Origin: Escherichia phage AV126
Direction: 5' to 3' (one strand)
Sequence record: OR352956.1
Length of the DNA: 64,000 nt
Below the pieces are notes generated by a model. That model was not told the origin of the DNA and did no database searches. It was given only the letters and a program-made list of their open reading frames with translations. This document shows, piece by piece, positions 6,298 through 60,898 of this stretch (the stretch's first letter is position 1; the number at the start of each line of letters is the position of its first letter). Made by a program: the position numbers and the translations under genes.

Positions 6298-6313
6298 TAT
6301 TATCTCCTCTACA

Positions 6314-7559: not shown

Positions 7560-7569
7560 TGTTTTCTCC

Positions 7570-7737: not shown

Positions 7738-7928
7738 TAATCTTCCTCCAGATCAATTTCATTATAGCAATGTATGCAGTAGCCATCGTTGTGCATATGC
7801 TGTTCATAAGACATATCTTTACCACAAGACCAACAACGAATATCACCATCGTCCCATTCACGTTCTTCTTCGCCTTCAAATGCATCTGGTAGGTAAGGCA
7901 TACCAAGACAATGTAAATCGTAATGCAT
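7737..7928 (-). CDS. small zinc-ribbon protein
   Basis: Start re-set to ATG after RBS AGGAGGAG; CWSC...CIHC four-Cys pattern; track ORF extended into polymerase 3' end. Confidence 0.45.
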   Translation of the reverse strand: MHYDLHCLGMPYLPDAFEGEEEREWDDGDIRCWSCGKDMSYEQHMHNDGYCIHCYNEIDLEED

Positions 7929-7935
7929 ATCTCCT

Positions 7936-7960
7936 CCTATAAAGGGGCAGAAGCCCCTTA
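7936..7960 (-). terminator. hairpin after polymerase gene
   Basis: AAGGGGC-agaa-GCCCCTT then TTTAT on minus strand. Confidence 0.5.
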
Positions 7961-7977
7961 TAAAACAATATGTTAGA

Positions 7978-47446: not shown

Positions 47447-47502
47447 TATTTTAACTTTTTTCATTTTTAGAACAAAGGTGTCACTTTGTAGCACAGAAAT
47501 AA

Positions 47503-47536
47503 GGCTCCTACAGCACCGTAGAGAGCCTGTTATTTT
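47503..47536 (+). terminator. rho-independent terminator ending plus-strand block
   Basis: GGCTCCTAC-agcacc-GTAGAGAGCC then TGTTATTTTG. Confidence 0.6.
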
Positions 47537-47685
47537 GTCCTATACAAACCCTTGTCTTTTTCAGTTTGCATCACTAGGATTCGATCTGAGTGGGTTCCTG
47601 AAGGTCTGCCAATAAGATTAAAGGTTATCTCAAATTCCCACTACCTATTATCTCAAAAATCCCTCAAATTATTTAAACTTTTTAA

Positions 47686-47870
47686 GAATTTACAAAAGTG
47701 AAAGTTGAAAACCAAAATTTAAAGTTTAGGAAAAATTATCTTAGAATGTTAGATACAAACAAAACTCAAAAGTCAAGGAAAATTTTAAAAATTTTGCGCG
47801 CCCACAGTATTTAAAGTTTTTTTGCTTTTACAAAAATGAAAGTACAAAAGCAAAATTTAAAGTTTACAAA
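47686..47870. repeat. two imperfect ~45-bp direct repeats
   Basis: TTTACAAAAGTGAAAGTTGAAAACCAAAATTTAAAGTTTA (47686) vs TTTACAAAAATGAAAGTACAAAAGCAAAATTTAAAGTTTA (47818). Confidence 0.6.
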
Positions 47871-47914
47871 AATTTATGCAGGTGGGAATGAGAAGAGTTC
47901 TCATGTGGAAATGC

Positions 47915-47993
47915 AAATGATAATGATTCGCATTTAAGTTTATAAACGAGATTGATTCTTATTCAATAAGGTAAATGATAATCATTCTCATTT
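47915..47993. promoter_or_regulatory. two Fur-box-like motifs
   Basis: AAATGATAATGATTCGCATTT (47915-47935) and AAATGATAATCATTCTCATTT (47973-47993) vs consensus GATAATGATAATCATTATC. Confidence 0.4.
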
Positions 47994-48251
47994 AGAGAAT
48001 GACGCGCAGGGGCGGTGTTTGTCTCGCGCTCCCGTGTCCCCTCGCCATGTAATAAGAATAACAGATCCAACCAGGAAAGCAAGCGATTATTTTATCTTTA
48101 CATTTCTTTACAAATATATAGCGCCCAGCCTACCGGCGATCAACCTTCCAACCAGCGCCCCTGGTATGTTAGCCCCGCCTTTACGCCGTGGGGTGGCGCT
48201 TCCTCTTCTGTATGTAAAACAGTATAAGCCCGATCCCTGGGCTTGTCAAGA

Positions 48252-48518
48252 TTATTTTTTGTTTTCTTGCCAGGATAGGACACCTAACCAAAAATGCATA
48301 TCGCCCCGCGCCGCTGGCGGGATCTTGCTTTCCCCGCCGCCACTGCAAGCCCATAAATAACCATCAGCAAACGGATCAAAATGTTCTATCTCTTCCACTT
48401 TATGATCGCCCAGGTTGAGAACGGTTTCAACCTTTAAGCCCGTTGCGCTTGCTACCTGGTGCACCGTGCCGCCTTGCCAGCCCAATGAGTGCATAAGGTG
48501 TAATGTAGTATTTGTCAT
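48252..48518 (-). CDS. hypothetical protein (uncertain)
   Basis: 88-aa ORF in GC-rich non-coding-looking stretch; weak RBS. Confidence 0.25.
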   Translation of the reverse strand: MTNTTLHLMHSLGWQGGTVHQVASATGLKVETVLNLGDHKVEEIEHFDPFADGYLWACSGGGESKIPPAARGDMHFWLGVLSWQENKK

Positions 48519-48626
48519 GGTATCGCCCTTTCTTTGATGTGCGCCCTGGTTGGCGCGGTAGAAAGATAATAGCCCTTTTCTTTATATATAGCAAGCAAAA
48601 AGAAAATAAAAAAGATTGAAAAATGG

Positions 48627-48683
48627 TTGACGTTAACCAGGCGGCGGCGTAGTATTCATCTTATAGGGCGGCAATGGTGCCGC
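48627..48683 (+). promoter_or_regulatory. promoter-hairpin cassette 1
   Basis: TTGACG, 17 nt, TAGTAT, then GGCGGCA-atgg-TGCCGC. Confidence 0.6.
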
Positions 48684-48704
48684 TCACTATTTGGAGTTAA
48701 GATC

Positions 48705-48902
48705 ATGGCAACATTGCACATTGTGGCGAAAGCTGGACAAATCAACGTAGTGGTAAACGGTTTTACTGAGTTCAGTCACCCCCAGGATGATCATGAAACG
48801 GTTTTATCTTTCATTGATTCCCTGTTAGAAATGGGAGTCATTACAGAAGACCAGCACGCTACAAAATGCAAGCGCGTTAATCAAATTGCAGGAATAGAAT
48901 AA
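48705..48902 (+). CDS. hypothetical small protein
   Basis: 65 aa from ATG after RBS GGAG; track ORF begins at the TTG of the -35 box. Confidence 0.55.
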   Translation: MATLHIVAKAGQINVVVNGFTEFSHPQDDHETVLSFIDSLLEMGVITEDQHATKCKRVNQIAGIE

Positions 48903-48908
48903 AAACTA

Positions 48909-48968
48909 TTGACAACAAACAACAACCTGATAAGATGTATCACATAGGGCGGGAAGTGGTTTCCCGCT
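48909..48968 (+). promoter_or_regulatory. promoter-hairpin cassette 2
   Basis: TTGACA, 16 nt, TAAGAT, then GGCGGGAA-gtggt-TTCCCGC. Confidence 0.65.
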
Positions 48969-48992
48969 CGTAACAGAAGAGAGATTATCATC

Positions 48993-49265
48993 ATGGCATC
49001 ATATAGCGCAACAATGATCGTAGCTGGCACAACTGGTAAACCTATGAGCGGTGGCGGATCTTTCGCTAATATCAATATTGACGGGCGTTTATCCCTGGAC
49101 GCAGCGATCGCTATTGCACGGGAAACATTTAAGAAAGAATGTAATTTCAACAAGCAAGATTATCTCGGTTTCGCTATTGAAAAAACCGCGCGCTTTGTTG
49201 ATTATAAAAGCCCGAAAATGGTTGATACTACACTAAAAGCGCAAGATGTAGCGTTTTTGCTTTAA
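48993..49265 (+). CDS. hypothetical small protein
   Basis: 90 aa; RBS AGAAGAGAG. Confidence 0.55.
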   Translation: MASYSATMIVAGTTGKPMSGGGSFANINIDGRLSLDAAIAIARETFKKECNFNKQDYLGFAIEKTARFVDYKSPKMVDTTLKAQDVAFLL

Positions 49266-49268
49266 GGC

Positions 49269-49323
49269 TTGACATTAACGAATAATTTGTTAATATGTTA
49301 CATAAAGCGGGAATAGTTCCCGC
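49269..49323 (+). promoter_or_regulatory. promoter-hairpin cassette 3
   Basis: TTGACA, 16 nt, TAATAT, then GCGGGAA-tag-TTCCCGC. Confidence 0.65.
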
Positions 49324-49341
49324 TATTTGTAAGGTGGTAGA

Positions 49342-49599
49342 ATGTTTTACATCAAATTAAAAGGTCACGTGATCGCGTTCAAAGATAACGCTTTTTACAG
49401 ATTAGCAAAATATGCGTTAATACATCCCCACTATGTTTATATAAGGGGGCGTGATGAAATAAATATCTTTGATCAAACAACATGCGAGAACATCGAGATC
49501 CGCAAGGTTGGCGTACGTGATTATCGTACATCTTTCTACCCTTGCAAGGATTCAGCAAGTCTTTTTAAAGTATGCCAATTGTTGAAAAAAGGTGGTTAA
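49342..49599 (+). CDS. hypothetical small protein
   Basis: 85 aa; RBS AAGGTGG. Confidence 0.55.
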   Translation: MFYIKLKGHVIAFKDNAFYRLAKYALIHPHYVYIRGRDEINIFDQTTCENIEIRKVGVRDYRTSFYPCKDSASLFKVCQLLKKGG

Positions 49600-49600
49600 T

Positions 49601-50158
49601 ATGGGCCGCGAATATGTGATCCAGTCTTGGGTAAAACATGAAGCAGATGATCCGCGCATCATTCCCGATCATCTTATCGATGAATCCACGGGATATAGCG
49701 GTGAGCAAATAGGTAACAGATTAGCACGTAGTAACGGCAACGTAAAAGCGCGTTATGTGCGCCCTGGCTGGCTGGCAAATGGTAACGCTGATTTATCCAG
49801 TGCGGAAGATGCAAGCGACGGCGCGAAAGATAATCCTTTGTACAAAATTGATCCGGCTTTTCGTGTCCTGGATGAATACCCCAGCAAGATAGCGGCGCTT
49901 GATGAAGCATTGGAAAGTAAGCGCATCACCTGGACCGCTTACAACATGGCAAAAAACGTACTTGATGGTAAATTGATTCAAGCTGAAAGAAAATTAGCCA
50001 AAATTGCAGCCATAGCCCAGGAGGAAGACGAGGAGACAACGGAAGAGGAAGAGTACGAAGAGATCCCGCCGTTGTTGTGTATTGATGCTTTTCCTGATTA
50101 TCAGCCGACAGAGGAAGAAAAAAGGATCGCACTAGAAAACTTTGAAAATAGTCTTTGA
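49601..50158 (+). CDS. hypothetical protein with acidic C-terminal region
   Basis: Start re-set to MGREYVIQ after RBS AAAGGTGG; EEDEETTEEEEYEE. Confidence 0.5.
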   Translation: MGREYVIQSWVKHEADDPRIIPDHLIDESTGYSGEQIGNRLARSNGNVKARYVRPGWLANGNADLSSAEDASDGAKDNPLYKIDPAFRVLDEYPSKIAALDEALESKRITWTAYNMAKNVLDGKLIQAERKLAKIAAIAQEEDEETTEEEEYEEIPPLLCIDAFPDYQPTEEEKRIALENFENSL

Positions 50159-50211
50159 CATATCGCCGCCACTGGCATAATATTTACCACGTAGGGCGGC
50201 AATGGTGCCGC
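50155..50211 (+). promoter_or_regulatory. promoter-hairpin cassette 4
   Basis: TTGACA, 17 nt, TAATAT, then GGCGGCA-atgg-TGCCGC. Confidence 0.65.
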
Positions 50212-50240
50212 TCATAGTGAAATTATACAGGAGGTTTACA

Positions 50241-50336
50241 ATGATTAATAAAGAAAATAGCTTGACGGTTGGAACGATTAACGCTATCATTTTCGCCGTT
50301 CCATTTTGGGTTGTAGTAGCGGCTATTATTTTCTAA
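50241..50336 (+). CDS. small hydrophobic peptide
   Basis: 31-aa ORF not in track; RBS AGGAGG. Confidence 0.4.
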   Translation: MINKENSLTVGTINAIIFAVPFWVVVAAIIF

Positions 50337-50345
50337 AAAATATTC

Positions 50346-50406
50346 TTGACAACGTTTTTTAATCTGATAAGATGTATCACATAGGGCGGCGGAATACTTC
50401 CCCGCC
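50346..50406 (+). promoter_or_regulatory. promoter-hairpin cassette 5
   Basis: TTGACA, 16 nt, TAAGAT, then GGCGGCGGAA-tac-TTCCCCGCC (imperfect). Confidence 0.6.
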
Positions 50407-50427
50407 AAAACAAAAAAGGGTAACACA

Positions 50428-50790
50428 ATGAGCAAGCAAATCAATACTATCATGTTTAATCTGGTATCTTTCCGCGATGATATGAAAAATTTACCACGTG
50501 AAACGGTTGATATTCATGTTTCAGCTTATCGCGCCCTTATTGATATGTTACCGCTAAAACGTGATCAACATGCCGCTAATATGATGCTTAATGCTATGCT
50601 TAAAAAGATGATTCAAACGGATCTTACTCTGGCATATGAGTATCAAGGGCGCTTATATGCTACTTACAACAAAGCGGTACCTGGTCTGGGAAGTACCGAA
50701 GAGTTGCACGGCTTAAACCTGGATCAGAACACTTGGGATAGTATGCGCCGCGTTATGGTATGGGCCGAAAGCGGTAAAATTTACGAATAA
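50428..50790 (+). CDS. hypothetical protein
   Basis: 120-aa ORF. Confidence 0.55.
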   Translation: MSKQINTIMFNLVSFRDDMKNLPRETVDIHVSAYRALIDMLPLKRDQHAANMMLNAMLKKMIQTDLTLAYEYQGRLYATYNKAVPGLGSTEELHGLNLDQNTWDSMRRVMVWAESGKIYE

Positions 50791-50796
50791 AAACGG

Positions 50797-50856
50797 TTGA
50801 CACTGTTTAAAATGCTGGTATAGTTTATCACATAGGGCGGGAAGTGGTTTCCCGCC
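50797..50856 (+). promoter_or_regulatory. promoter-hairpin cassette 6
   Basis: TTGACA, 16 nt, TATAGT, then GGCGGGAA-gtggt-TTCCCGCC. Confidence 0.65.
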
Positions 50857-50878
50857 AACAATGAAAAAGGTTATCATC

Positions 50879-51244
50879 ATGGCTATTAATATTAATGTTT
50901 CCGCTTATGCTACCCTGGCTAACACGGCTAAAATTGAATTATCCAGCATTGAGGCGGTGCATATTAGCGCCCGTCGCTGGTTTCAACAGTCCTACGGTAA
51001 CACGTATTTTTCTTTAATGGTTGACGTTGAGATCGGCGGTAAACTGATCGAGGTGGTTAACGTTCCGTTTCAATATGGCTATGGTGATCATTTTGATACC
51101 GTCGCCCTGGAAGAATTTAGCAAGGTTATCAACCTTGAGGGCAAGGAATTTTCACGCGGCGCGTATCTTTCCCGTTTTTGCCGTGACAATGGGATCACTG
51201 TATACAGTCATGCAAGCGATGTTAAACGTAAAAAAGATCTATAA
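50879..51244 (+). CDS. hypothetical protein
   Basis: Start re-set to MAININVSAY by analogy with sibling cassettes. Confidence 0.5.
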   Translation: MAININVSAYATLANTAKIELSSIEAVHISARRWFQQSYGNTYFSLMVDVEIGGKLIEVVNVPFQYGYGDHFDTVALEEFSKVINLEGKEFSRGAYLSRFCRDNGITVYSHASDVKRKKDL

Positions 51245-51250
51245 AAAGCA

Positions 51251-51309
51251 TTGACAGCACGAATAAAAAGAGTAAACTGTATTACATAGAGAGCGGGAAC
51301 ACTTCCCGC
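51251..51309 (+). promoter_or_regulatory. promoter-hairpin cassette 7
   Basis: TTGACA, 16 nt, TAAACT, then GCGGGAA-cac-TTCCCGC. Confidence 0.65.
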
Positions 51310-51333
51310 CTCACTGAAAAAGAGAGAAAAATC

Positions 51334-51573
51334 ATGGCTAAATCTAAAATGTACAACGGTCACAAAAACAAAACTCATTGGAATGTAAGCCTGTGGATTA
51401 ATAACGATGAGGGATTGTATCGGTTTGCATTGGGATTGATCAATGAGTGCGGTAATAAAGATCAGGCGGCTGATTTAATGTGCTACCGTTTGAAACAGGA
51501 TGGAATCACTACAACGCCAGACGGCTTTAAGTATAGTAAAACTGCAATCCGCGCCGCTATGGTTGGAATGTAA
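51334..51573 (+). CDS. hypothetical small protein
   Basis: 79 aa; RBS AAAGAGAGA. Confidence 0.55.
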   Translation: MAKSKMYNGHKNKTHWNVSLWINNDEGLYRFALGLINECGNKDQAADLMCYRLKQDGITTTPDGFKYSKTAIRAAMVGM

Positions 51574-51582
51574 TAAAAACAG

Positions 51583-51642
51583 TTGACAACGTTTAAAATT
51601 AGTGTAAGATGTATCACATAGGGCGGGAAGTGGTTTCCCGCC
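51583..51642 (+). promoter_or_regulatory. promoter-hairpin cassette 8
   Basis: TTGACA, 16 nt, TAAGAT, then GGCGGGAA-gtggt-TTCCCGCC. Confidence 0.65.
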
Positions 51643-51664
51643 AACAACAGAGAGATTAAAGATT

Positions 51665-51892
51665 ATGGCTATCAATATTGTTCGTGTATCCGGCACCGTT
51701 GGCAGTTCCCAGGTTGTAGCAGTTGTAACAAACAAAAAGATTAATGATGTATGTGAGATCTTGAATAAGTGGGCTATTGCTAATTTTGGGGAATATGCAA
51801 GCGTTGAGTACATCGAATCCTACCAGGTGCCGACCATCAGCCTAACCGATCTCAACGTTGATCGCCTGTTATGCCTGGATGAATTAATCTGA
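51665..51892 (+). CDS. hypothetical small protein
   Basis: 75 aa; N-terminus MAINIV resembles 50879 gene. Confidence 0.55.
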   Translation: MAINIVRVSGTVGSSQVVAVVTNKKINDVCEILNKWAIANFGEYASVEYIESYQVPTISLTDLNVDRLLCLDELI

Positions 51893-51901
51893 AAAAGATT
51901 G

Positions 51902-51957
51902 TTGACACGGGAAAGAAAAAGAGTAAACTGTATTACGTAGGGCGGCAATAGTGCCGC
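51902..51957 (+). promoter_or_regulatory. promoter-hairpin cassette 9
   Basis: TTGACA, 16 nt, TAAACT, then GGCGGCA-ata-GTGCCGC. Confidence 0.65.
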
Positions 51958-51982
51958 TCACAACAGAAGAGAGATTATCACG

Positions 51983-52198
51983 ATGGCTAATATCCGTACA
52001 CTGTTAAAAAATGCAAGTCAAGTTTTATTTTCAGATGACGAGTATTTCAACAAAGACATTACAGGCGTGAAAAATTTAAAAGACGTGAAGGATGTTATCG
52101 GTATCCGTGGATCTTTACGTAAAGGTGATATATACGGTAACAAGGTGCAATATAAACTGTCAAAAGATTATGATTTTACTTTGACAATTATTTCATAA
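51983..52198 (+). CDS. hypothetical small protein
   Basis: 71-aa ORF. Confidence 0.55.
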   Translation: MANIRTLLKNASQVLFSDDEYFNKDITGVKNLKDVKDVIGIRGSLRKGDIYGNKVQYKLSKDYDFTLTIIS

Positions 52199-52204
52199 AA
52201 CCGC

Positions 52205-52266
52205 TTGCAATCTTAATAAAATAAAGTAAACTGTATTACATCAAGGCGGCGGAATGGTCCACCGCC
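52205..52266 (+). promoter_or_regulatory. promoter-hairpin cassette 10
   Basis: TTGCAA, 16 nt, TAAACT, then GGCGGCGGA-atgg-TCCACCGCC. Confidence 0.6.
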
Positions 52267-52290
52267 TAACAAAGAGAAGAGGAAAATATT

Positions 52291-52458
52291 ATGATCACTT
52301 TCGCTACCCGTGAAGCCGCTCGCAACGTTGCCCGTAAAGTTAACGCCGCCAACCTGGGCGCTACACTTAAAGCCCCGGTAAAAGATGCATCAGGCGCGTG
52401 GATCTTCCCTGGTCTGCGTCACGCTGATAAGCTAGGCACTTTAAGCCTTAAAAAATAA
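52291..52458 (+). CDS. hypothetical small basic protein
   Basis: 55-aa ORF not in track; RBS AGAGGA. Confidence 0.45.
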   Translation: MITFATREAARNVARKVNAANLGATLKAPVKDASGAWIFPGLRHADKLGTLSLKK

Positions 52459-52461
52459 TCG

Positions 52462-52500
52462 TTGACTTTTCGTTATAGCGCCTTATAATGGGCGCTATAG
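52462..52500 (+). promoter_or_regulatory. promoter with palindrome over the -10 box
   Basis: TTGACT, 16 nt, TATAAT lying in the loop of ATAGCGCC-N8-GGCGCTAT. Confidence 0.55.
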
Positions 52501-52532
52501 AGAAGAGAAACCACTACTAACAAGGAAACATC

Positions 52533-52754
52533 ATGATCACTTTCGCTATTGTCGCCGTTGTCGCTGGTCAGGTTTACGTAAACGAGACATTTACTACAGA
52601 AGACAAGGCCGCAGGAGATATAACCGCCGTTTACAACGAGTGCAAGGCAGTAGAAAGGATGTTAGCGCCTTGTATGCTAATGAGTGAACGCCAGGACGGG
52701 ATAACAGTATTTACTAACATTGAAACAGGGTACCAAATGGTAGTAACAAAATAA
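52533..52754 (+). CDS. hypothetical small protein
   Basis: 73-aa ORF. Confidence 0.55.
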   Translation: MITFAIVAVVAGQVYVNETFTTEDKAAGDITAVYNECKAVERMLAPCMLMSERQDGITVFTNIETGYQMVVTK

Positions 52755-52757
52755 AGC

Positions 52758-52814
52758 TTGACACGGATTTAATTTTCAGTAAACTGTTACACGTAGGGCG
52801 GGAATAGTTCCCGC
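52758..52814 (+). promoter_or_regulatory. promoter-hairpin cassette 11
   Basis: TTGACA, 16 nt, TAAACT, then GCGGGAA-tag-TTCCCGC. Confidence 0.65.
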
Positions 52815-52833
52815 TCAAAAAGAGAGAAAGACT

Positions 52834-53187
52834 ATGAAAGCACAAAATGCAATTAAAGAGTACATCCTTGCCGCTATCGATTTTAATGATTACGGTATTA
52901 CAACCGAAAAAGAGAAGATCGCGGAATTGATGCGCCGTTTTAATTCCGAGTACTGGTACCCTGATAACCAATCACGTTTTAATTATAGTATTGTTAAAGC
53001 ACTTGCATCATGGTTACAAGGTTTGCCATCAGATATCAATATCGCTTTCGAATATTGGGAAATTGATCGCCTGTTAACATCCTGGGGATACATTAAAGAG
53101 AATAGCCGCGATGATAAAATCCAACGAGAAAGGGAAAATTATTGGCTTTATATTGCAGGCGTGATCCTTGCTTGCTCTTATGAATGA
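52834..53187 (+). CDS. hypothetical protein
   Basis: 117-aa ORF. Confidence 0.55.
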   Translation: MKAQNAIKEYILAAIDFNDYGITTEKEKIAELMRRFNSEYWYPDNQSRFNYSIVKALASWLQGLPSDINIAFEYWEIDRLLTSWGYIKENSRDDKIQRERENYWLYIAGVILACSYE

Positions 53188-53193
53188 TAAACC

Positions 53194-53246
53194 TTGACAA
53201 TTTTACAAAACAGTTTAAATTAACAATATAGCGGCAATGGTGCCGC
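53194..53246 (+). promoter_or_regulatory. promoter-hairpin cassette 12
   Basis: TTGACA, 16 nt, TAAATT, then GCGGCA-atgg-TGCCGC. Confidence 0.6.
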
Positions 53247-53266
53247 TCATATGAAGAGGAAACAAA

Positions 53267-53413
53267 ATGAATACATCTAATCGCGCAGAAAAAATTCAAT
53301 CTTCCAAGATCCGCAAGGCCTGGAACGAGGAAGTGATCCGCAAAGGCGACAAGCGTAATAAAACAAAGCGCGGGAAGAGTGACAAATATAATTGGATGGA
53401 TTTAGAGGATTAA
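53267..53413 (+). CDS. small basic protein
   Basis: 48-aa Lys/Arg-rich ORF not in track; RBS GAGGAAAC. Confidence 0.4.
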   Translation: MNTSNRAEKIQSSKIRKAWNEEVIRKGDKRNKTKRGKSDKYNWMDLED

Positions 53414-53419
53414 CATAAC

Positions 53420-53447
53420 AAGGGCGCACCAAGCGCCCTTTCTTTTT
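53420..53447 (+). terminator. rho-independent terminator
   Basis: AAGGGCGC-acca-AGCGCCCTT then TCTTTTT. Confidence 0.7.
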
Positions 53448-53468
53448 ACATGTAGAGGATAAACAAAA

Positions 53469-53654
53469 ATGACTTTAAACGAGCTTAAAACAGCGTACAG
53501 CGCAACATTAAAAATAGCCGTGCGTTACCGTGACGAATACGGTTTTATTGCGCAGGGCGTGATCCTGGGCTTTTCTGACGATGGTTTGATCTATGTTGAT
53601 GCACATTATAACAAGGTTAAACCGGAAAACGTTATTAGCATAAAATATCTTTAA
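53469..53654 (+). CDS. hypothetical small protein
   Basis: 61 aa; RBS GAGGA. Confidence 0.5.
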   Translation: MTLNELKTAYSATLKIAVRYRDEYGFIAQGVILGFSDDGLIYVDAHYNKVKPENVISIKYL

Positions 53655-53660
53655 AAACGG

Positions 53661-53720
53661 TTGACACCATAACCGGACCTGTTAAACTGTATTACATCAG
53701 GCGGGGAATAGTTCCCCACC
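53661..53720 (+). promoter_or_regulatory. promoter-hairpin cassette 13
   Basis: TTGACA, 16 nt, TAAACT, then GGCGGGGAA-tag-TTCCCCACC. Confidence 0.6.
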
Positions 53721-53739
53721 ATACAAAAAGGTAAATATT

Positions 53740-53946
53740 ATGATCACCGCAAAACAAGAAAAAATCATTATCGACGTTGCAGCCGTTGCCGCTATCGCTA
53801 TTATTGGATCTTATTATGATACCCGTTTCCCGTCGGCTATGCATGAGGTCGCCGCCGTTGCATCAGTTGGCGTACTGTTTTACGTTGGTAAACGCTATTT
53901 ATCACCAATGATTAACAAGCTGACACCGTGGAAAAATAAAGGTTGA
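53740..53946 (+). CDS. small membrane protein
   Basis: 68 aa, hydrophobic core AAVAAIAIIG. Confidence 0.5.
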   Translation: MITAKQEKIIIDVAAVAAIAIIGSYYDTRFPSAMHEVAAVASVGVLFYVGKRYLSPMINKLTPWKNKG

Positions 53947-53997
53947 TCCTGTTTTACATTGTGTTATAGTTATCGTGTAGGGCGGCAATGGTGCCGC
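53943..53997 (+). promoter_or_regulatory. promoter-hairpin cassette 14
   Basis: TTGATC, 16 nt, TATAGT, then GGCGGCA-atgg-TGCCGC. Confidence 0.6.
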
Positions 53998-54017
53998 GCC
54001 CCTTTGAGGATGCAATC

Positions 54018-54302
54018 ATGAGTAAAGCTAACACCGTGCTAATGTTTTCCCTGATTAATGATCTCGCTTACTTGTCCAACATGACGCAGGAGGGTAACAC
54101 ATTAACGGCAACATTCACCAATAAGCTTGACCGAGTGATCATCGTCTCACTGAAAACAGTTAGTAAAGGCTTTTACTCGTTAGCTTATCATTGTATCACT
54201 GACACCGACGAGACAAGCCAGGACTATAGCGCCCCTTTCCCTGAATCAATGGCACGGGAGATCATCGCCGCCGTTGTAAATGATGGTTTGTTTACTGCAT
54301 AA
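54018..54302 (+). CDS. hypothetical small protein
   Basis: Start re-set to MSKANTVL; track start is the ATG inside the hairpin loop. Confidence 0.5.
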   Translation: MSKANTVLMFSLINDLAYLSNMTQEGNTLTATFTNKLDRVIIVSLKTVSKGFYSLAYHCITDTDETSQDYSAPFPESMAREIIAAVVNDGLFTA

Positions 54303-54319
54303 ATAATTTAGAAAAAGGC

Positions 54320-54376
54320 TTGCAATCATTTTGAGATAGTGTATATTTAATTCATAGGGCGGCGGGAATAGTTCCC
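54320..54376 (+). promoter_or_regulatory. promoter-hairpin cassette 15
   Basis: TTGCAA, 16 nt, TATATT, then GGGCGGCGGGAA-tag-TTCCC. Confidence 0.55.
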
Positions 54377-54399
54377 AAAGCAAACGAGAGGATTACACG

Positions 54400-54519
54400 A
54401 TGAGCAAGTACACAGTAGAATACACGGTAGAGAATCCGGCAGTATCCGAAGGTAAAAAGATGACATTTGCCATCAGTATAATCGCTTTCGTTGTCACTAT
54501 CTTATCAATCATCTTATAA
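54400..54519 (+). CDS. small membrane peptide
   Basis: 39-aa ORF not in track; RBS GAGAGGA; C-terminal hydrophobic helix. Confidence 0.4.
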   Translation: MSKYTVEYTVENPAVSEGKKMTFAISIIAFVVTILSIIL

Positions 54520-54529
54520 GGTACACACC

Positions 54530-54691
54530 ATGAAAATAGCAGACATTATCAAAGAGATCGCCCTTGCCACTGGTATCGAGATCGAGGAAGTGATCGCGCT
54601 CAATCTTACAGAAAACGATTTGCGCAACTATGAAGCGGAAAGCGTGAAAGCAAGTGGCGCGGTCCTGGCATATAATCCGGCTAACAAATAG
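54530..54691 (+). CDS. hypothetical small protein
   Basis: Start re-set to MKIADIIKE; 53 aa. Confidence 0.4.
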   Translation: MKIADIIKEIALATGIEIEEVIALNLTENDLRNYEAESVKASGAVLAYNPANK

Positions 54692-54692
54692 T

Positions 54693-54750
54693 TTGACAAG
54701 CTGAATCAACCTGATAAGATGTATGACATAGGGGCGACAAGCGCCCCGCC
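54693..54750 (+). promoter_or_regulatory. promoter-hairpin cassette 16
   Basis: TTGACA, 16 nt, TAAGAT, then GGGGCG-acaa-GCGCCCC. Confidence 0.65.
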
Positions 54751-54771
54751 TAACAGAAGAGAGAAAAAATC

Positions 54772-55050
54772 ATGACCATCACCAAATTATCTACCGAAGA
54801 GATCACCAACATTCTGACTACTAATCTGCAAGATTGGAAGCGTGAAGCCGATTTGCAAGCGGTTTGCAAGCTGAATGTAGAGTTAACAGAAAGCGACATT
54901 GACGCCATTATTAACCCTGATTTCTATGATGCTATTCATGATGATTCTATTATCCTTGAAACACTATTAGATAATACTTGGATCAATCCCGATTTGGCAG
55001 CTTATGACCGTAGCGCCTTTATCACTATCCACAATATCTATAACCGTTAA
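54772..55050 (+). CDS. hypothetical small protein
   Basis: 92-aa ORF. Confidence 0.55.
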   Translation: MTITKLSTEEITNILTTNLQDWKREADLQAVCKLNVELTESDIDAIINPDFYDAIHDDSIILETLLDNTWINPDLAAYDRSAFITIHNIYNR

Positions 55051-55060
55051 GGGGCGTAGC

Positions 55061-55171
55061 ATGAATCCGAGAGATATGCAATCATGGAAAGGGTGCGACG
55101 ATCTAAGCGCCTTGCGCAATAAGTCAAGCCGTAACCTTAGACGGTTGGAAGCAAAGAAAAAGAAAAAATAG
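55061..55171 (+). CDS. small basic peptide (uncertain)
   Basis: 36-aa ORF not in track; Lys-rich tail. Confidence 0.3.
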   Translation: MNPRDMQSWKGCDDLSALRNKSSRNLRRLEAKKKKK

Positions 55172-55172
55172 T

Positions 55173-55228
55173 TTGACAAGTCGGCTTAGTCTGGTAATAT
55201 GTATCTTGTAGGGCGGCAATGGTGCCGC
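55173..55228 (+). promoter_or_regulatory. promoter-hairpin cassette 17
   Basis: TTGACA, 16 nt, TAATAT, then GGCGGCA-atgg-TGCCGC. Confidence 0.65.
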
Positions 55229-55249
55229 TCACAAGAAGAGAGAAAAATC

Positions 55250-55534
55250 ATGGAAATCACAAAAAGCCTAACTAATTATGCAGCACGTCGCGGATTATGT
55301 TTAACCGTTGAAAACTTAGGGAAAGAAGACTTTTTGTGTTTTTGGGAGCTTGAAAATGATTGCGAGTGGATGTTTTCCTATTCTATCTGCGAAGATCAAA
55401 ACGGTTGTTTGTTAACCTGGCGCGGTAATATCTATTTACCGGAAGAAATTAAAGAAGAGTTACCAGGTACAATCATGACAGAGAGACAGCTTAAGGAAGT
55501 GATCAATTTTGTAGGGCAAAACATTAAAAAATAA
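55250..55534 (+). CDS. hypothetical small protein
   Basis: Start re-set to MEITKSL; 94 aa, Cys/Trp-rich. Confidence 0.5.
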   Translation: MEITKSLTNYAARRGLCLTVENLGKEDFLCFWELENDCEWMFSYSICEDQNGCLLTWRGNIYLPEEIKEELPGTIMTERQLKEVINFVGQNIKK

Positions 55535-55535
55535 T

Positions 55536-55597
55536 TTGACAGCACGCAAACAACGTAGTAAAGTTTACCACATAGGGCGGCGGAATGGTCCACCGCT
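55536..55597 (+). promoter_or_regulatory. promoter-hairpin cassette 18
   Basis: TTGACA, 17 nt, TAAAGT, then GGCGGCGGA-atgg-TCCACCGC. Confidence 0.6.
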
Positions 55598-55619
55598 CAC
55601 AACAGAAGAGAAACAAATC

Positions 55620-55790
55620 ATGATCCCGACTATGTTTTATGTATCGCGCAAAGGTCACAATATTTTTTGGTCTGAAGATTTAAATGAAGCCATGACGTTT
55701 GCCCGTGATCGTGTTGCTATCGGTGGCGTTAACATCACCGTAACCGATGAAAATGGCATTGAATACTATAACGGCGACGATGAAGAGTAA
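55620..55790 (+). CDS. hypothetical small protein
   Basis: Start re-set to MIPTMFYVSRKG; 56 aa. Confidence 0.5.
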   Translation: MIPTMFYVSRKGHNIFWSEDLNEAMTFARDRVAIGGVNITVTDENGIEYYNGDDEE

Positions 55791-55856
55791 TTAATAAGGC
55801 GGGGAATACTTCCCGCCACGCAGTGAATTTTCCGTTTGGGAAGTAAAAAATAAATC

Positions 55857-55918
55857 TTGACGATAATTTGTTATCTGATAGAATGTATTTCGTAGGGCGG
55901 GGCAATAAGGCAACGCCC
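55857..55918 (+). promoter_or_regulatory. promoter-hairpin cassette 19
   Basis: TTGACG, 16 nt, TAGAAT, then imperfect GC hairpin GGGCGGGGCAATAAGGCAACGCCC. Confidence 0.5.
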
Positions 55919-55936
55919 ATTAATGAGGGTAGAATC

Positions 55937-56041
55937 ATGTTAGAGAAAATTTTCACGGTTGCAGTAGTTGGCCTGGCGTTATCGGTTGGAGTGGTTGCAA
56001 CTATGGCTAATATGATCCTATCTTCCCACGGTATCGGCTAA
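55937..56041 (+). CDS. small membrane peptide
   Basis: 34-aa ORF not in track; RBS GAGGG; hydrophobic. Confidence 0.4.
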   Translation: MLEKIFTVAVVGLALSVGVVATMANMILSSHGIG

Positions 56042-56051
56042 GGTGAAACAA

Positions 56052-56267
56052 ATGATCACGAATAAGACAGGTAAAACGGAATTTTTACGCGGCTTGCAAG
56101 TTGGTAAACCTGAGATCTGGCATTGTACTAAATCCGCGCATAATGAAATGAAAGATTTTACCGCTACTTTACAACGTGTTAAAATATCTATCACACAGAA
56201 AAAAGCCTTGTTAGTAGTAGAAAACGAGATCCCGCAAACTATTATTATTGTCGAGCGTACAGCATGA
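56052..56267 (+). CDS. hypothetical small protein
   Basis: Start re-set to ATG after RBS AAGGTG. Confidence 0.5.
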   Translation: MITNKTGKTEFLRGLQVGKPEIWHCTKSAHNEMKDFTATLQRVKISITQKKALLVVENEIPQTIIIVERTA

Positions 56268-56650
56268 AAACAGAAATCATTATTGAAATCATCAACGGTT
56301 ATAAAGAAGCCTTTATTTTTGCTGAATCAGCAAGGGATCATGAAGGTAATTTTATTGAAAACTTAGACGATTATGATTTTTCTCCTAGCGCGGACGAACG
56401 GATCGCCCAGGATGTAACAGCCTTTATTAATGCTAATCTTGCCGCTATCTCTGAGGCAATGAGCGACGGCGCAACAGCCAACCAGATCGGGAATGATTTA
56501 CATTTTACCCGTAACGGTCACGGCGTAGGCTTTTGGGATCGCCCTGAAATATACACCACTAACACGGCGAACCGCCTAACCAATGCAGCTAAGTTTATGC
56601 CGAACGTGTCGGCTTACATTGGTGAAGATAATTTGATTTATATTGAATAA
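56264..56650 (+). CDS. hypothetical protein
   Basis: 128 aa; ATGA overlap with upstream gene. Confidence 0.55.
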   Translation: MKTEIIIEIINGYKEAFIFAESARDHEGNFIENLDDYDFSPSADERIAQDVTAFINANLAAISEAMSDGATANQIGNDLHFTRNGHGVGFWDRPEIYTTNTANRLTNAAKFMPNVSAYIGEDNLIYIE

Positions 56651-56656
56651 AAAGTA

Positions 56657-56713
56657 TTGACACAGATCGCCAGTGTGCTAATATTTACCACGTAGGGCGG
56701 CAATGGTGCCGCC
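56657..56713 (+). promoter_or_regulatory. promoter-hairpin cassette 20
   Basis: TTGACA, 16 nt, TAATAT, then GGCGGCA-atgg-TGCCGCC. Confidence 0.65.
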
Positions 56714-56731
56714 GATAATGAGGAAAGTAAA

Positions 56732-57031
56732 ATGGAAACTATCGCTATTGTTACCGTAGAAAAACTGGTTGTTGGTGATGTATTCGCGTTAATGGTGCCT
56801 AACAGCAGCAAGCTGGGCGCTTATGAAGTAATGGATCATAAAAATGAATCATTTGGCGACGGTTGCACAATGGCGGTAAAATCTTTAAAGGATGGAATCA
56901 TCCGCCAGGCTAACTGGCACAAAGGGAATCAAGTCGGTTTAATATCAGCTAATTTCTTGCCAGAAGAGCAAACGTTAGACCAACTATCAGGCGGTAAGAC
57001 GTTAGCCGAACTACTGGAAACAGCGATCTAA
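56732..57031 (+). CDS. hypothetical protein
   Basis: 99-aa ORF; RBS GAGGAAAG. Confidence 0.55.
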   Translation: METIAIVTVEKLVVGDVFALMVPNSSKLGAYEVMDHKNESFGDGCTMAVKSLKDGIIRQANWHKGNQVGLISANFLPEEQTLDQLSGGKTLAELLETAI

Positions 57032-57075
57032 TCAACAAAGGGGCGGCAACGCCCCACATCAGAAAGGAAAAGATT

Positions 57076-57312
57076 ATGAGTATTGCAACAGTATTAAACG
57101 CCGTTAAAACCGCTGAATCATCCGGCTTGCATGTTGAGCTTATAGATCAACCAGGTGGCGATCTCCTTGTCCAGGTTTACCCGCCGAAAGTAGGGGATGA
57201 TTATTATTGGGCTTATTCTGATACGTTCGAACAAGTAGACACGAAAGCGATCACGGCTTTTATTTTAAAAGCTATTGAAGAAAATAACTTTCATCATAAC
57301 ATCAATCAATAA
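57076..57312 (+). CDS. hypothetical small protein
   Basis: 78 aa; preceded by promoterless hairpin GGGGCG-gcaa-CGCCCC. Confidence 0.55.
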   Translation: MSIATVLNAVKTAESSGLHVELIDQPGGDLLVQVYPPKVGDDYYWAYSDTFEQVDTKAITAFILKAIEENNFHHNINQ

Positions 57313-57366
57313 ACCATAAGCGGGGCGGTAACGCCCCATTAAACGCAATAGGAAGAGGATAGACGC

Positions 57367-57657
57367 ATGAAAAAGATGATCGCAGTAGTTGCCCTGGTTG
57401 TTGGTATTAACGCGCCTGTACTGGCTAATGAGTTGCCAGAATCCATCACGCTAACCGATATCAACGCAATAAACCGGATCGGCGTTAATTATCGCCTATG
57501 CCTTGCCGCTAAAACTTTCCAGGACGGCACGACAGAATACCACGGATTCGAGGGTATCCGCTGCGGTGAGCTTGCACGCGACCTTAAGGAAGATCCAGAC
57601 CTTGAGGCCATACCGATGACCGTAAACGGTAAAGCTTACGTAAACCGCCAACAATGA
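57367..57657 (+). CDS. secreted small protein
   Basis: 96 aa; signal peptide MKKMIAVVALVVGINAPVLA. Confidence 0.55.
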   Translation: MKKMIAVVALVVGINAPVLANELPESITLTDINAINRIGVNYRLCLAAKTFQDGTTEYHGFEGIRCGELARDLKEDPDLEAIPMTVNGKAYVNRQQ

Positions 57658-57788
57658 GAAAGATAATCATCACAATGGGGATCGTAGTAGCAACGCTGGC
57701 GCTTATCCCCTTCATGGTTGAACATGTGCTGATCAGTGTTGTCCTTGTAGTCAGTGACCTATTGGAAACGGTTGGCAACTGGTTTTAA
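57654..57788 (+). CDS. small membrane peptide
   Basis: 44-aa ORF not in track; ATGA overlap; hydrophobic. Confidence 0.4.
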   Translation: MRKIIITMGIVVATLALIPFMVEHVLISVVLVVSDLLETVGNWF

Positions 57789-57797
57789 GATAAATAA

Positions 57798-57825
57798 ACA
57801 GGGCTTGTTTTTGTCCTGTTTTTTG
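57798..57825 (+). terminator. rho-independent terminator
   Basis: ACAGGGC-ttgtttttgt-CCTGT then TTTTTTG. Confidence 0.65.
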
Positions 57826-57963
57826 TTATACTTATTGAACGGGCGGCACTTGGGAGCAGGTGAAGATAATCACCGGAAGATCCCGCTATATATCGATAGC
57901 TAATACCTATCAAACAACAAAACATCAAAGAGATAAACTATCAAATCTTTACAATCCTACCTA

Positions 57964-58024
57964 TTGACACCGGATCACGCTTACATTATTATTTATCACG
58001 TAGGGCGAGCAATACAGCAAGCCC
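57964..58024 (+). promoter_or_regulatory. promoter-hairpin cassette 21
   Basis: TTGACA, 17 nt, TATTAT, then GGGCGAGCAA-tac-AGCAAGCCC. Confidence 0.55.
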
Positions 58025-58041
58025 ACAAAGAGGAAAAGAAG

Positions 58042-58410
58042 ATGAGCAAATCAGCAATTAAAGCAGTTGAAAAAGCGCAAGAAGTGATCGCAACGTCAAC
58101 CACTGGCGCAAAGGTTAATCTCGTTGGTTATCTGACAGATGAAGCTATCCGTAAAAATTGGCGTAATGCTGATTTACTGGCTTGCTTATTGATTAATAGT
58201 GTCGCTAATGCTTTCCAGTGTGAAACAGCCGAGAGCCTGGAGGAAAACTTGTTTGATAATATGGATCAAGCCATTGAAACCTATATACAATCAAACCTGG
58301 ATAGCTGGAACAGTAAGACATGGCCTGACAGCTTACGCGATACAACTGATCAACTGATCCGCCTTGCCCTGATGGTTGAACGCGATAACGTTCACAACCG
58401 CACAAAGTAA
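58042..58410 (+). CDS. hypothetical protein
   Basis: Start re-set to MSKSAIKAV after RBS AGAGGAAAAG. Confidence 0.55.
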   Translation: MSKSAIKAVEKAQEVIATSTTGAKVNLVGYLTDEAIRKNWRNADLLACLLINSVANAFQCETAESLEENLFDNMDQAIETYIQSNLDSWNSKTWPDSLRDTTDQLIRLALMVERDNVHNRTK

Positions 58411-58468
58411 GATTATACAAGGGGCGCACTAAGCGCCCTTTAACGTAAAGAAATGTAAATAATGCGCT

Positions 58469-58505
58469 ATCCCCTATTGACAGGGGATCGGCGTTATATT
58501 ATATT
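58469..58505 (+). promoter_or_regulatory. promoter with palindrome over the -35 box
   Basis: ATCCCCT-attgac-AGGGGAT enclosing TTGACA; 17 nt; TATATT; no downstream GC hairpin. Confidence 0.5.
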
Positions 58506-58550
58506 TAACTCACTGGCAGCAAACAACGAAACGAAACAAAGGACAACACC

Positions 58551-58970
58551 ATGAACATTAAATCAAATAATCCAGCTTACTCCTTCGATAACGCTTTTTG
58601 TCACGGTAGCGCCGCCAAAGGCTTCGAAATCGATGGTAAATTGGTTATCGTGAACGTTGACGGGGAAGAGGTTGCAGTGTATCCGGTAAACGATGTTAAA
58701 AGCCGTTTACAATGCCGCATGGATGTTACCGCATATCAGCTTGATCCGGTCCGTGTAGTTGCCCTGGTATTAGAGGAAGAGATCAAAGCAATGCATCACA
58801 GTAATAAGTTTATTGGTGACGCGCAGGATAATATGAACGTTTGCCGCCATAAAGTTAATGAAGCATTGAAAGAATATGGTTTTAAGGATCTGATGATCAA
58901 ACGTGATGAAAAATTCCGCTTTCGTAATGACCTGGCAAACCGGATCTACTCAATCTATGAAGCGTTATAA
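58551..58970 (+). CDS. hypothetical protein
   Basis: 139-aa ORF. Confidence 0.55.
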   Translation: MNIKSNNPAYSFDNAFCHGSAAKGFEIDGKLVIVNVDGEEVAVYPVNDVKSRLQCRMDVTAYQLDPVRVVALVLEEEIKAMHHSNKFIGDAQDNMNVCRHKVNEALKEYGFKDLMIKRDEKFRFRNDLANRIYSIYEAL

Positions 58971-58984
58971 TCGACAACAAAACA

Positions 58985-59012
58985 AGGGGCGCACCAAGCG
59001 CCCTTTCTTTTT
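58985..59012 (+). terminator. rho-independent terminator closing the island
   Basis: AAGGGGCGC-acca-AGCGCCCTT then TCTTTTTG. Confidence 0.75.
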
Positions 59013-59217
59013 GCCTGAACAATGTTGATAGCTTTCGCCTATGAAAAACCGACACAGAACAAAACTGAATAAATCGCGGTATCGAGCTAATCAACCATCA
59101 AACGAATAACCATACATCCCAGGGCAACAGGCTGTTAGAGAGCTATTTAGAGCGGTTAAAATCGATCTACAACCAACAACAAACCATCAAAAACACCCTT
59201 TTACCTCCTTTCTAGTG

Positions 59218-59237
59218 CAATGATAACCATTATCATC
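59218..59237. promoter_or_regulatory. Fur-box-like motif
   Basis: CAATGATAACCATTATCATC; 14 of 15 core positions match ATGATAATCATTATC. Confidence 0.4.
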
Positions 59238-59989
59238 TACCCATGATTATCTATGCAATATAAGCGCATAATTATAATGTTGATAATAGTTCGCAACAAC
59301 TAACCAACAAACAACATAAAACAATAAGCAAACTAATCATAATCAAAGGAATAATAGCAAGATGATTGATAACGACAAACAATCAAACCATGATGAATAC
59401 TAAGCAAGATAACGATAACACGACAAAACAACCAACTAACGAACAATAACAAACGAAACCATTAAAAGATCAACTATTAGCAAAATAGTGTCTATTGCCA
59501 TAATAGTGACTGAATGAAATCATTACAAAACGAATCATTCCAAGGATCATCATTAGCACGCTACGCCGGACACGTAGCGAGCTAATAATAAGCCAACTAC
59601 ACCCCAACAATCATAACCATCGGTGACGGTTATTTCTTGTTACTGCGTAGCTTGCAATAATTGCAAGCGTAATGACGCTTACACTTATTGCGCTGGCTTA
59701 TTATTAGCATTATATGTAATTACCAAGATCATAACATTAGCGCAATAACAATAATCATTACAATAATTACATAAGGAAACAATTAGCATAGCAATAATTA
59801 TGGGGGCAATGGGAGGATGATTATCATCATTCCGATACATTGCACACTATGCACATAATAAGATAAAAAGCAATAATCTTGGGGGCGAAATGTTACCGCC
59901 ACAGGCGGGAATGTTGAGCATCTTCTCTTAAACGTAAATAAAATCAGAAAATTCTTGATTTATTTTAGTTTTTATGTTAATAAACGTTT

Positions 59990-60010
59990 AAATAATAATC
60001 ATTCTCATAT
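59990..60010. promoter_or_regulatory. Fur-box-like motif (weaker)
   Basis: AAATAATAATCATTCTCATAT shares ATAATCATTCTCAT with 47973 site. Confidence 0.3.
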
Positions 60011-60167
60011 AAATAATAGTCTGCTTGTCATGAGCGGGATTAGTTGACATTGTTCCGTCATATGATGAAGTTGCCAAGCCATTGATAAATAAGTGTTTGT
60101 GTGATTTATAATCAAGTGGCCCACCTTGTCGCTACGTTGGCATGAGCCTTGCATAAGTCATTGAATA

Positions 60168-60190
60168 CGAATGATAATTATTCTCATTCG
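60168..60190. promoter_or_regulatory. Fur-box-like motif
   Basis: GAATGATAATTATTCTCATTCGC. Confidence 0.35.
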
Positions 60191-60529
60191 CATGATATTT
60201 GGGAATTGTCGCTGCGTGGACCTGACGGCCCGAAAATTCGCGTTAAGCACTTCTTACGTATGCGCCATGATTTTTGCCATATCATATTGATTCTATTAGA
60301 TATTCTTGCCATGATTGCCATGAAACAGGGTGTCCCGAAATAATCTCTCCCCGTAGATATTTTGGGTTACTTTTTATACAAGAGTGGGGTGTCAAAAATA
60401 ATCGGTATATATGGGATAATTGATAGGAATCCCCTATGATAATTCGATTGTAATTCCCTAAGATTGATCGTATGATGTTGGTGATTGATGATTGCCATGA
60501 AAGATGGCTAACGATGAGAGGAGATTATC

Positions 60530-60898
60530 ATGCAAGAGAGTAAAAATATTCCGTTGAGCAGTGCAGCATTGATTCAATTCTACAAAGCATGGATGGCTGA
60601 TCACTACAGCATGGATCGCACGGAGAATGGACTGTGTTTATGTATTCATCATTTTGTGCGATCTCATCTTATGAAAGATGTGGAGAATCCCCGATGGTAT
60701 GCCGACATAATAGATAGCTTGTTGTTTGAGATGCGTGCTCAGTTCAAAGACGCTGGCATTGATACGTGCGCACCCTTCAACACTGGATATGCGGATTACT
60801 TGATTGAAGTGGAAGATAAAATGTGTCACCTGAATCCACTTCGCATTCAGTGGGTGAAAGATCGCATTGAAGATGCAAATAATGCTTGCATTGAATAA
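60530..60898 (+). CDS. hypothetical protein
   Basis: 122 aa; RBS GAGAGGAG. Confidence 0.55.
   Translation: MQESKNIPLSSAALIQFYKAWMADHYSMDRTENGLCLCIHHFVRSHLMKDVENPRWYADIIDSLLFEMRAQFKDAGIDTCAPFNTGYADYLIEVEDKMCHLNPLRIQWVKDRIEDANNACIE

Follow-up and report, generated by a model that had tools for sequence, protein, structure and literature searches.

The Fur box is a textbook element of iron control in bacteria, and one such box stands in front of the phage-borne cargo gene stx1. An array of Fur boxes upstream of Escherichia coli ftnA reportedly displaces H-NS. On lambdoid phages that carry sitABCD, a Fur box lies in front of the cargo operon (PMC6969025). In E. coli, overlapping sites 6 (or 3) bp apart are the criterion for a Fur cluster; the 6-bp pairing was reported for all eleven footprinted sites and was read as two dimers on different helix faces (PMC2189734). 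A search of the literature on virulent phages, rV5, Phapecoctavirus, and the T5 injection stop signal (iss) returned phage Fur boxes only before cargo operons such as sitABCD. Here, we report five Fur-type sites in the noncoding DNA of Escherichia phage AV126 (sequence record OR352956.1), within a stretch of 64,000 nucleotides that is called the window throughout. The kind of element is known; what is new is its deployment in a terminal repeat and along noncoding borders, with neither a conserved promoter nor a cargo gene. The five motifs are, with high probability, genuine high-affinity sites for host Fur that have been kept by selection, and binding is predicted from their sequences.

Positions 47400 to 60600 of the window were 94 to 98% identical to phAPEC8-like phages, with phage tuntematon as the top match over the whole region. 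The phage type is Phapecoctavirus (phAPEC8-like; subfamily Stephanstirmvirinae), a group of virulent E. coli myoviruses of ~150 kb.

Scores, placement, and conservation of the sites

A symmetric 19-bp Fur matrix was built from 19 E. coli K-12 sites, with sequences extracted from NC_000913.3 (MG1655) and coordinates according to Chen et al. 2007 (PMC2189734); 17 of the 19 had been footprinted or gel-shifted, and the Qin prophage site nohA was the only phage sequence included. Leave-one-out scoring gave these real operators a median of 18.1 bits, the lowest being 7.1 bits. Eight positions within the five phage sites scored 16.8 to 22.9 bits, inside the range of proven operators and level with the strongest of them (Table 1).

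All five motifs named in the original prediction, which had been made from the DNA letters alone, were recovered in place. Matches to the 19-bp consensus GATAATGATAATCATTATC numbered 16/19 at 47971-47989, 15/19 at 59216-59234 and 60173-60191, and 14/19 at 47913-47931 and 59988-60006; the 16 to 17 of 19 first claimed for two sites was thus slightly generous, with one site at 16 and two at 15. The core ATAAT(C/T)ATTCTCAT, said to be common to three sites, occurred exactly three times (47978, 59995, and 60174), versus 0.16 in shuffles, none of 100 of which reached three. Every site also fitted the 7-1-7 Fur unit TGATAATnATTATCA, none with more than two mismatches, and the window total was 8 such matches (0.94 expected). 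Matches were paired at an offset of 6 bp at every site; both members were good at sites 1, 2, 3, and 5, and site 4 combined one strong match with one weak match. The site cores are nearly those of the ryhB operator (GACAATAATAATCATTCTCATTCGCA) and the fhuA operator, and 18/20 bases of site 4 were identical to the ryhB operator (by eye).

Against dinucleotide-preserving shuffles, the left noncoding tract (805 bp) held two clusters of ≥16.8 bits (0.01 expected) and the right tract (1559 bp) held three (0.03 expected); neither count was reached in any of 2000 shuffles. Taken together, 2.4 kb of noncoding DNA held five clusters where ~0.04 would be expected. The remaining ~61.6 kb of the window had only one site at this threshold, at 16162 in a coding region, and the scanned ~50 kb (~49.7 kb) of a sister genome had none of ≥14 bits outside the terminal repeat. 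The lone coding match (AATTATTAAAATCATTATC, 16162-16180, 18.0 bits) had no partner 6 bp away and is probably due to chance. Scoring against composition-matched shuffles was the test proposed beforehand, and its outcome supports the likeness to Fur boxes, and this is reinforced by conservation across subfamilies. The sites scored better than AT-rich background, because 0/2000 shuffles reached the observed counts and the natural-sequence controls were nearly empty.

The tracts are 35% G+C, and the downstream GAGAATGAC can pair with site 2 in a 9-bp hairpin, as would suit chance AT-rich palindromes or a conservation acting only through RNA hairpins or terminators. Against this stand the shuffle counts in the window and in six tested relatives, each of which beat 999 to 1000 of 1000 shuffles. 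The RNA hairpins predicted over the box differ between phages, yet the DNA motif is kept; because the hairpins vary in this way, the box is conserved as DNA, and its role as an RNA terminator hairpin was ruled out. Together, the shuffle and conservation tests effectively refute this explanation.

The boxes recur far outside the phAPEC8-like phages. Members of the Vequintavirinae (Klebsiella Mydovirus, Cronobacter CR9, Salmonella SSE121, Enterobacter F1M1E, and rV5) retain one to four boxes at the corresponding place, and across subfamilies box identity was 70 to 89%, versus 40 to 55% in adjacent DNA. On the left side, relatives whose flanking protein is 55% identical carried four strong clusters (six positions of ≥15 bits, up to 23.8 bits) in the same place. 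In the divergent IMG/VR relative L020 (neighboring protein, 55% identical), the terminal repeat had diverged except for its two boundaries and sites 4 and 5; site 4 was kept although its flanks diverge, and site 5 had gained exactly one GATAAT hexamer and scored 24.6 bits. Such a single-hexamer gain, like the 6-bp pairing, is a hallmark of Fur arrays (PMC2189734). The box of site 3 was identical in tuntematon and L020. Site 2 adjoins the 3' end of a noncoding RNA (ncRNA)-like element (Table 1), and an alignment of nine phages was gapless from the 3' hairpin of this element through the box. A 52-bp segment that carries site 2 (47943-47994) was inverted in tuntematon (2046-2097), where 49/52 bases were identical to the reverse complement and the box was retained. 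The inverted segment is bounded by inverted Fur-like half sites.

Genome ends were inferred from the sister phage Schickermooser, whose record (NC_048196) has an exact 329-bp repeat at its start and finish that maps to window positions 59917-60245; the corresponding paper gives the repeat as 328 bp (PMC6563267). With the repeat mapping there, the physical ends would lie in the right noncoding tract, and the window would span a concatemer junction. A motif resembling AGCAnnTTCT(CT)TA(A)ACGTA follows both repeat boundaries, which are both conserved; it probably signals where the terminase cuts. The repeat contains sites 4 and 5, at 71 and 54 bp from its boundaries and so less than 100 bp from the inferred ends. 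Site 3 is ~210 bp beyond the terminator that closes the small-gene array and ~700 bp inward of the terminal repeat, and sites 1 and 2 mark the inner border of the small-gene block, 12.3 kb (~8% of the genome) from the right end. The small-gene array forms the bulk of the final ~11.6 kb of virion DNA, with a Fur-bearing tract on each side. The sites had been described as flanking an island on both sides; this is correct, and it misses that the right tract holds the physical ends, that sites 4 and 5 are in the repeat, and that the island is the terminal block.

Similar arrays were found in other phages. About 30 of 33 bases of site 1 were identical (by eye) to a repeat unit of T5-like phage HildyBeyeler, which BLAST linked to sites 1 and 2 and which has at least five boxes of 17 to 21 bits beside paired DnaA boxes. 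Matrix matches in T5 (AY587007) fell at 9470 (15.8 bits), 9528 (13.8 bits), 9574/9580 (20.7/19.7 bits), and 9615 (19.6 bits); the stretch that they cover, 9470-9633, corresponds to the annotated direct repeats C (DRC) and palindromes E, G, H, and I. On one side of these boxes is the DnaA-box inverted repeat and on the other the 7.9% nick; the noncoding region that holds them was mapped as the injection stop signal, and the shear point calculated by Davison is at 9618. In T5, the arrays come after terminators and have no annotated promoter, and the T5 papers searched describe the injection-stop palindromes but do not name Fur.

In lambda (NC_001416), positions 48447-48471 scored 18.1 bits with nohA left out of the matrix, 31 to 37 bp from the right cohesive end and with no annotated promoter there. 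The box abuts GGGTCCT, which we take to be cosQ. The Qin prophage carries this very sequence upstream of nohA; Fur shifted it in gels and in vivo Fur titration recovered it, as reported in a paper that makes no mention of phage, prophage, or lambda for this site (PMC2189734). The exact palindrome AATGAKAATNATTCTCATT was present in at least 120 IMG/VR contigs, 20 of these loci having arrays of at least three strong clusters. In 13 of 40 whole IMG/VR contigs, it lay <300 bp from a contig end (3.7 expected), an enrichment that may reflect real termini and is only a lead because assembly breaks at repeats could produce it. From the scores and the tested relatives (lambda/Qin and ryhB/fhuA), Fur binding in vitro is very likely.

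Candidate functions of the arrays

The boxes could act as operators at which Fe-Fur represses phage promoters, which would confine some phage transcripts to iron-starved hosts. In E. coli, most Fur clusters coincide with a sigma-70 promoter; the trait is typical though not absolute, and the phage sites lack it. On the minus strand, weak promoter-like matches (9/12) overlap sites 1, 4, and 5 or lie next to them, and on the plus strand TTGCAT-18-GATAAT overlaps site 5 (by eye). Such matches occur at chance frequency in AT-rich DNA (right tract, 14 versus 7.8 expected), their -35 elements are not conserved in L020, where the 6-bp insertion would break the spacing, and these 9/12 matches were all that was present at the boxes, none of which was overlapped by a promoter conserved among relatives. 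The strong conserved promoter nearby (48249-48221) carries no box, the T5 arrays follow terminators, and T5 and lambda boxes lie off annotated promoters. A tie of phage transcription to host iron status, which the original prediction had offered first, thus gains no support from the geometry, and we regard an iron switch of this kind as improbable.

A phage-encoded DNA-binding protein with a Fur-box-like preference could also account for the motif. The T5 A2 protein binds DNA, most of the ~40 small genes beside the sites have no known function, and rV5-like and phAPEC8-like phages share many proteins, so that a common regulator is possible within that group. Yet every instance, across lambda, T5-like, and rV5-like phages, scored like a top host operator, and the lambda/Qin version is an experimental Fur site. 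With tblastn, the window plus 50 kb of Schickermooser (~110 kb of this ~150-kb phage type) gave no homologue of T5 pre-early (terminal-repeat) proteins, including A1 and A2, and no Fur homologue. The earlier suggestion of a phage regulator that happens to resemble Fur is unlikely because the motif is common to phages without a detectable shared candidate protein; we rate it somewhat below the promoter switch.

Fur is present at roughly 5,000 to 10,000 per cell. With five strong clusters and additional weaker ones, each genome offers ~10 to 12 dimer positions, and by an estimate from this abundance 100 to 300 copies of the genome could take up much of the Fur pool. Arrays that soak up Fur during replication would de-repress iron uptake and RyhB-type sparing and so supply iron to the phage class Ia ribonucleotide reductase; NrdA and NrdB of this iron-dependent enzyme are encoded in the sister genome. 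A single box on a multicopy plasmid suffices to titrate Fur in vivo (Qin nohA fragment, PMC2189734). Titration, another of the roles first proposed, is therefore physically plausible. It is also position independent, yet the boxes hold their place beside the RNA element and in the terminal repeat; strong titration would come only late in infection; and T5, which has the same arrays, reportedly degrades host DNA within minutes (10.64898/2026.04.02.716235), so that de-repression would be pointless there. Conserved placement and T5 being left unexplained, we consider a Fur sponge unlikely as the reason for the arrays.

The explanation that we favor, holding it to be evenly balanced between right and wrong, is that genuine Fur arrays act in cis at genome ends and borders, with titration as a by-product. 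In an iron-replete cell, preexisting Fe-Fur would load onto the arrays as phage DNA enters and form short protein-DNA blocks in cis, by which the ends of the genome and the edge of the early block may be marked or insulated. The blocks could obstruct RNA polymerase as a roadblock, keep H-NS from spreading out of AT-rich tracts, or be an accessory factor for DNA ends; Fur soaked up as genomes multiply would be an unavoidable side effect. A cis role is favored because the sponge explains neither the conserved placement nor T5 and the promoter switch is disfavored. We propose only tentatively that the arrays work mainly in cis and not through titration or promoter control.

Several points weigh against a cis role. 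It is not pinned to one mechanism among roadblock, H-NS barrier, and end or entry factor. Lambda late transcription must pass the box, so a simple roadblock is not general. A distance of 12 kb separates sites 1 and 2 from the end, and the word terminus fails to cover all five sites. Noncoding DNA is scarce in phages, and any binding array would land in these tracts; position is a weaker argument for that reason. The spacing of box and RNA is not strictly fixed, because the inversion in tuntematon puts the strong box ~30 bp further from the RNA element. Finally, ~83% of E. coli Fur clusters overlap promoters, and nonpromoter arrays are a minority (PMC2189734).

A more far-reaching version, which we offer as a long shot, would make Fur the missing host component of staged DNA entry and end handling common to large virulent coliphages. 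The right-terminal ~12 kb (~8% of the genome) would be delivered first, as in T5; Fe-Fur on sites 1 and 2 would halt or gate entry, as on T5 palindromes E to I; and the boxes of the terminal repeat and of lambda cos would use Fur as an accessory factor in end processing.

The motif makes up the so far unexplained T5 injection-stop palindromes and adjoins the lambda right cohesive end. If Fur does load at these positions, phage DNA entry, the handling of ends, or insulation of the early region would have a global iron sensor as a host factor; infection outcome would be linked to iron supply, which is relevant in the gut and in phage therapy; and the decades-old question of what stops T5 DNA transfer would be affected.

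Neighboring features

Table 1. Coordinates of the Fur-type sites and neighboring features in the window
Feature	Coordinates	Strand	Description
Fur-type site 1	47913..47937		Overlapping matches 47913-47931 and 47919-47937 (17.1 and 17.5 bits); 7-1-7 core TGATAATGATTCGCA at 47918-47932, 2 mismatches
Fur-type site 2 (strongest)	47971..47995		Matches 47971-47989 and 47977-47995 (22.9 and 17.3 bits); 7-1-7 core TGATAATCATTCTCA at 47976-47990
Fur-type site 3	59216..59240		Pair starting at 59216/59222 (17.3 and 14.0 bits); 7-1-7 core TGATAACCATTATCA at 59221-59235
Fur-type site 4	59988..60012		Pair starting at 59988/59994 (18.1 and 11.5 bits); core TAATAATCATTCTCA at 59993-60007
Fur-type site 5	60167..60191		Matches 60167-60185 and 60173-60191 (16.8 and 19.7 bits); core TGATAATTATTCTCA at 60172-60186
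Weak Fur-like hexamer runs near sites 1 and 2	47884-47902, 47907-47925, 47948-47966		9-10 bits each
Weaker Fur-like sites	59696-59714, 59744-59768, 59813-59831		14.1, 15.3, and 14.2 bits; AT-rich tract just inside the terminal repeat
Direct terminal repeat	59917..60245		329 bp; present once in the window; inferred left genome end 59917, right end 60245
Iteron-like direct repeats	47665..47890		TATTTAAAGTTT ... GAAAGT ... AAAATTTAAAGTTT; immediately left of the Fur boxes (read by eye)
Conserved ncRNA-like element	47996..48214	-	~215 nt; read leftward, ends at Fur-type site 2
Sigma-70 promoter of the RNA element	48221..48249	-	TTGACA-17-TATACT; 11/12 consensus positions; reads toward the box
88-amino-acid gene	48252-48518	-	phrog_19316, function unassigned
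Small-gene block (island)	48627..58970	+	~40 small genes, function unassigned (open reading frame list and annotation of tuntematon homologue)
Terminator of last small gene	58984-59006		

The ncRNA-like element was conserved from Phapecoctavirus to Vequintavirinae. Its consensus fold had 44 pairs, with 95% of cells paired and 7 pairs changed on both sides, and its invariant G-U pairs fit the minus strand only. The GC-rich block directly right of site 2 was conserved far better than the neighboring genes. Rfam gave nothing real, either over the whole window at the gathering threshold or over 47850-48300 at E ≤10 (PrrF, 14.6 bits, E = 6.8, was noise), and a host origin of the box-plus-RNA module found no match in 5,426 E. 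coli genomes. The promoter of the element was kept in position in other subfamilies (by eye) as TTGACG-17-CATAAT, TTGCAA-17-TATAGT, and TTGACA-18-TATAAT, and its spacer is the terminator hairpin of the upstream 88-amino-acid gene, a GC hairpin with 4 compensatory pairs. By eye, the 88-amino-acid gene and RNA module were near-identical in relatives whose NADAR-domain neighbor is only 55% identical, which suggests strong constraint or recent exchange.

Two further candidates in this block were rejected by eye. The box was ruled out as an operator for a rightward promoter serving the GC block, since the -35 element would be TAAATG (2/6), and an 18-amino-acid open reading frame proposed as a small peptide in the block was not conserved in relative L015 or in the Klebsiella phage. 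ARAGORN detected no tRNA genes in the window or its relatives. The annotated tRNA-Met and tRNA-Ile of Klebsiella phage OY978796 (1494-1647), which coincide with palindromic Fur boxes and the beginning of the GC block, look like false calls because ARAGORN detects no tRNA there.

The iteron-like repeats to the left may be an origin or a protein-binding array; relatives have lineage-specific repeats in their place, and T5-like phages have DRD repeats there. Two further tracts were seen near the inferred ends: an A+C-rich, strongly strand-asymmetric stretch immediately inside the right end, in which AACAA-type runs are numerous (59250-59900), and, between the terminal repeat and the first left-end gene (60250-60520), repeated TTGCCATGA motifs with several promoter-like sites.

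Genes in the window run leftward from ~5 to 41 kb and rightward from 41 kb. Coverage of the small-gene block differed from relative to relative, and the small island genes tested had zero Pfam matches. Among 10 neighboring proteins searched with Pfam and PHROG, only a NADAR protein, a CapR-type endonuclease, and an AAA ATPase were recognized, none of them iron or Fur related.

Comparison with known systems

Repeat Region 3 of T5 has the same layout as this locus, with an array of Fur-grade palindromes, flanked by direct repeats, in a large noncoding tract on the inner side of a terminal block of small early genes. T5 has eight paired DnaA boxes in IRC/IRD, whereas the noncoding tracts of the window have none; TTWTNCACA had four matches in the window, all in coding DNA. 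The terminal repeat of T5 is ~10 kb, in contrast to 329 bp plus a conserved RNA module here, and the two-step DNA entry of T5, whose second step uses the A1 and A2 proteins, is not known for phAPEC8-like phages.

Lambda and lambdoid prophages (nohA/nohB in Qin and DLP12) likewise place a strong Fur box tens of base pairs from a phage genome end. Theirs is a single box at the cos of a temperate phage, whereas this virulent myovirus has arrays in its direct terminal repeat and more of them 0.7 and 12 kb inside.

The boxes of sitABCD and stx1 are also host Fur sites on phage DNA, but those are ordinary operators that put cargo into the host Fur regulon, whereas here the phage is virulent and no cargo gene is present. 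The ftnA array serves a host iron-storage gene, and an anti-H-NS role of the phage arrays is hypothetical; in common with them, it has several Fur boxes off the promoter core, and it acts, as they would on this hypothesis, by occupying AT-rich DNA and not by blocking RNA polymerase.

The ryhB and fhuA operators differ in setting, since they cover the -35/-10 elements of a promoter and control an iron gene or small RNA, whereas the phage sites have no conserved promoter or iron-related neighbor. In the sites themselves the two agree: the same core (AATAATAATCATTCTCATTCGCA in ryhB), 7-1-7 and 9-1-9 symmetry, 6-bp pairing, and range of scores are found in these host operators and in the phage arrays.

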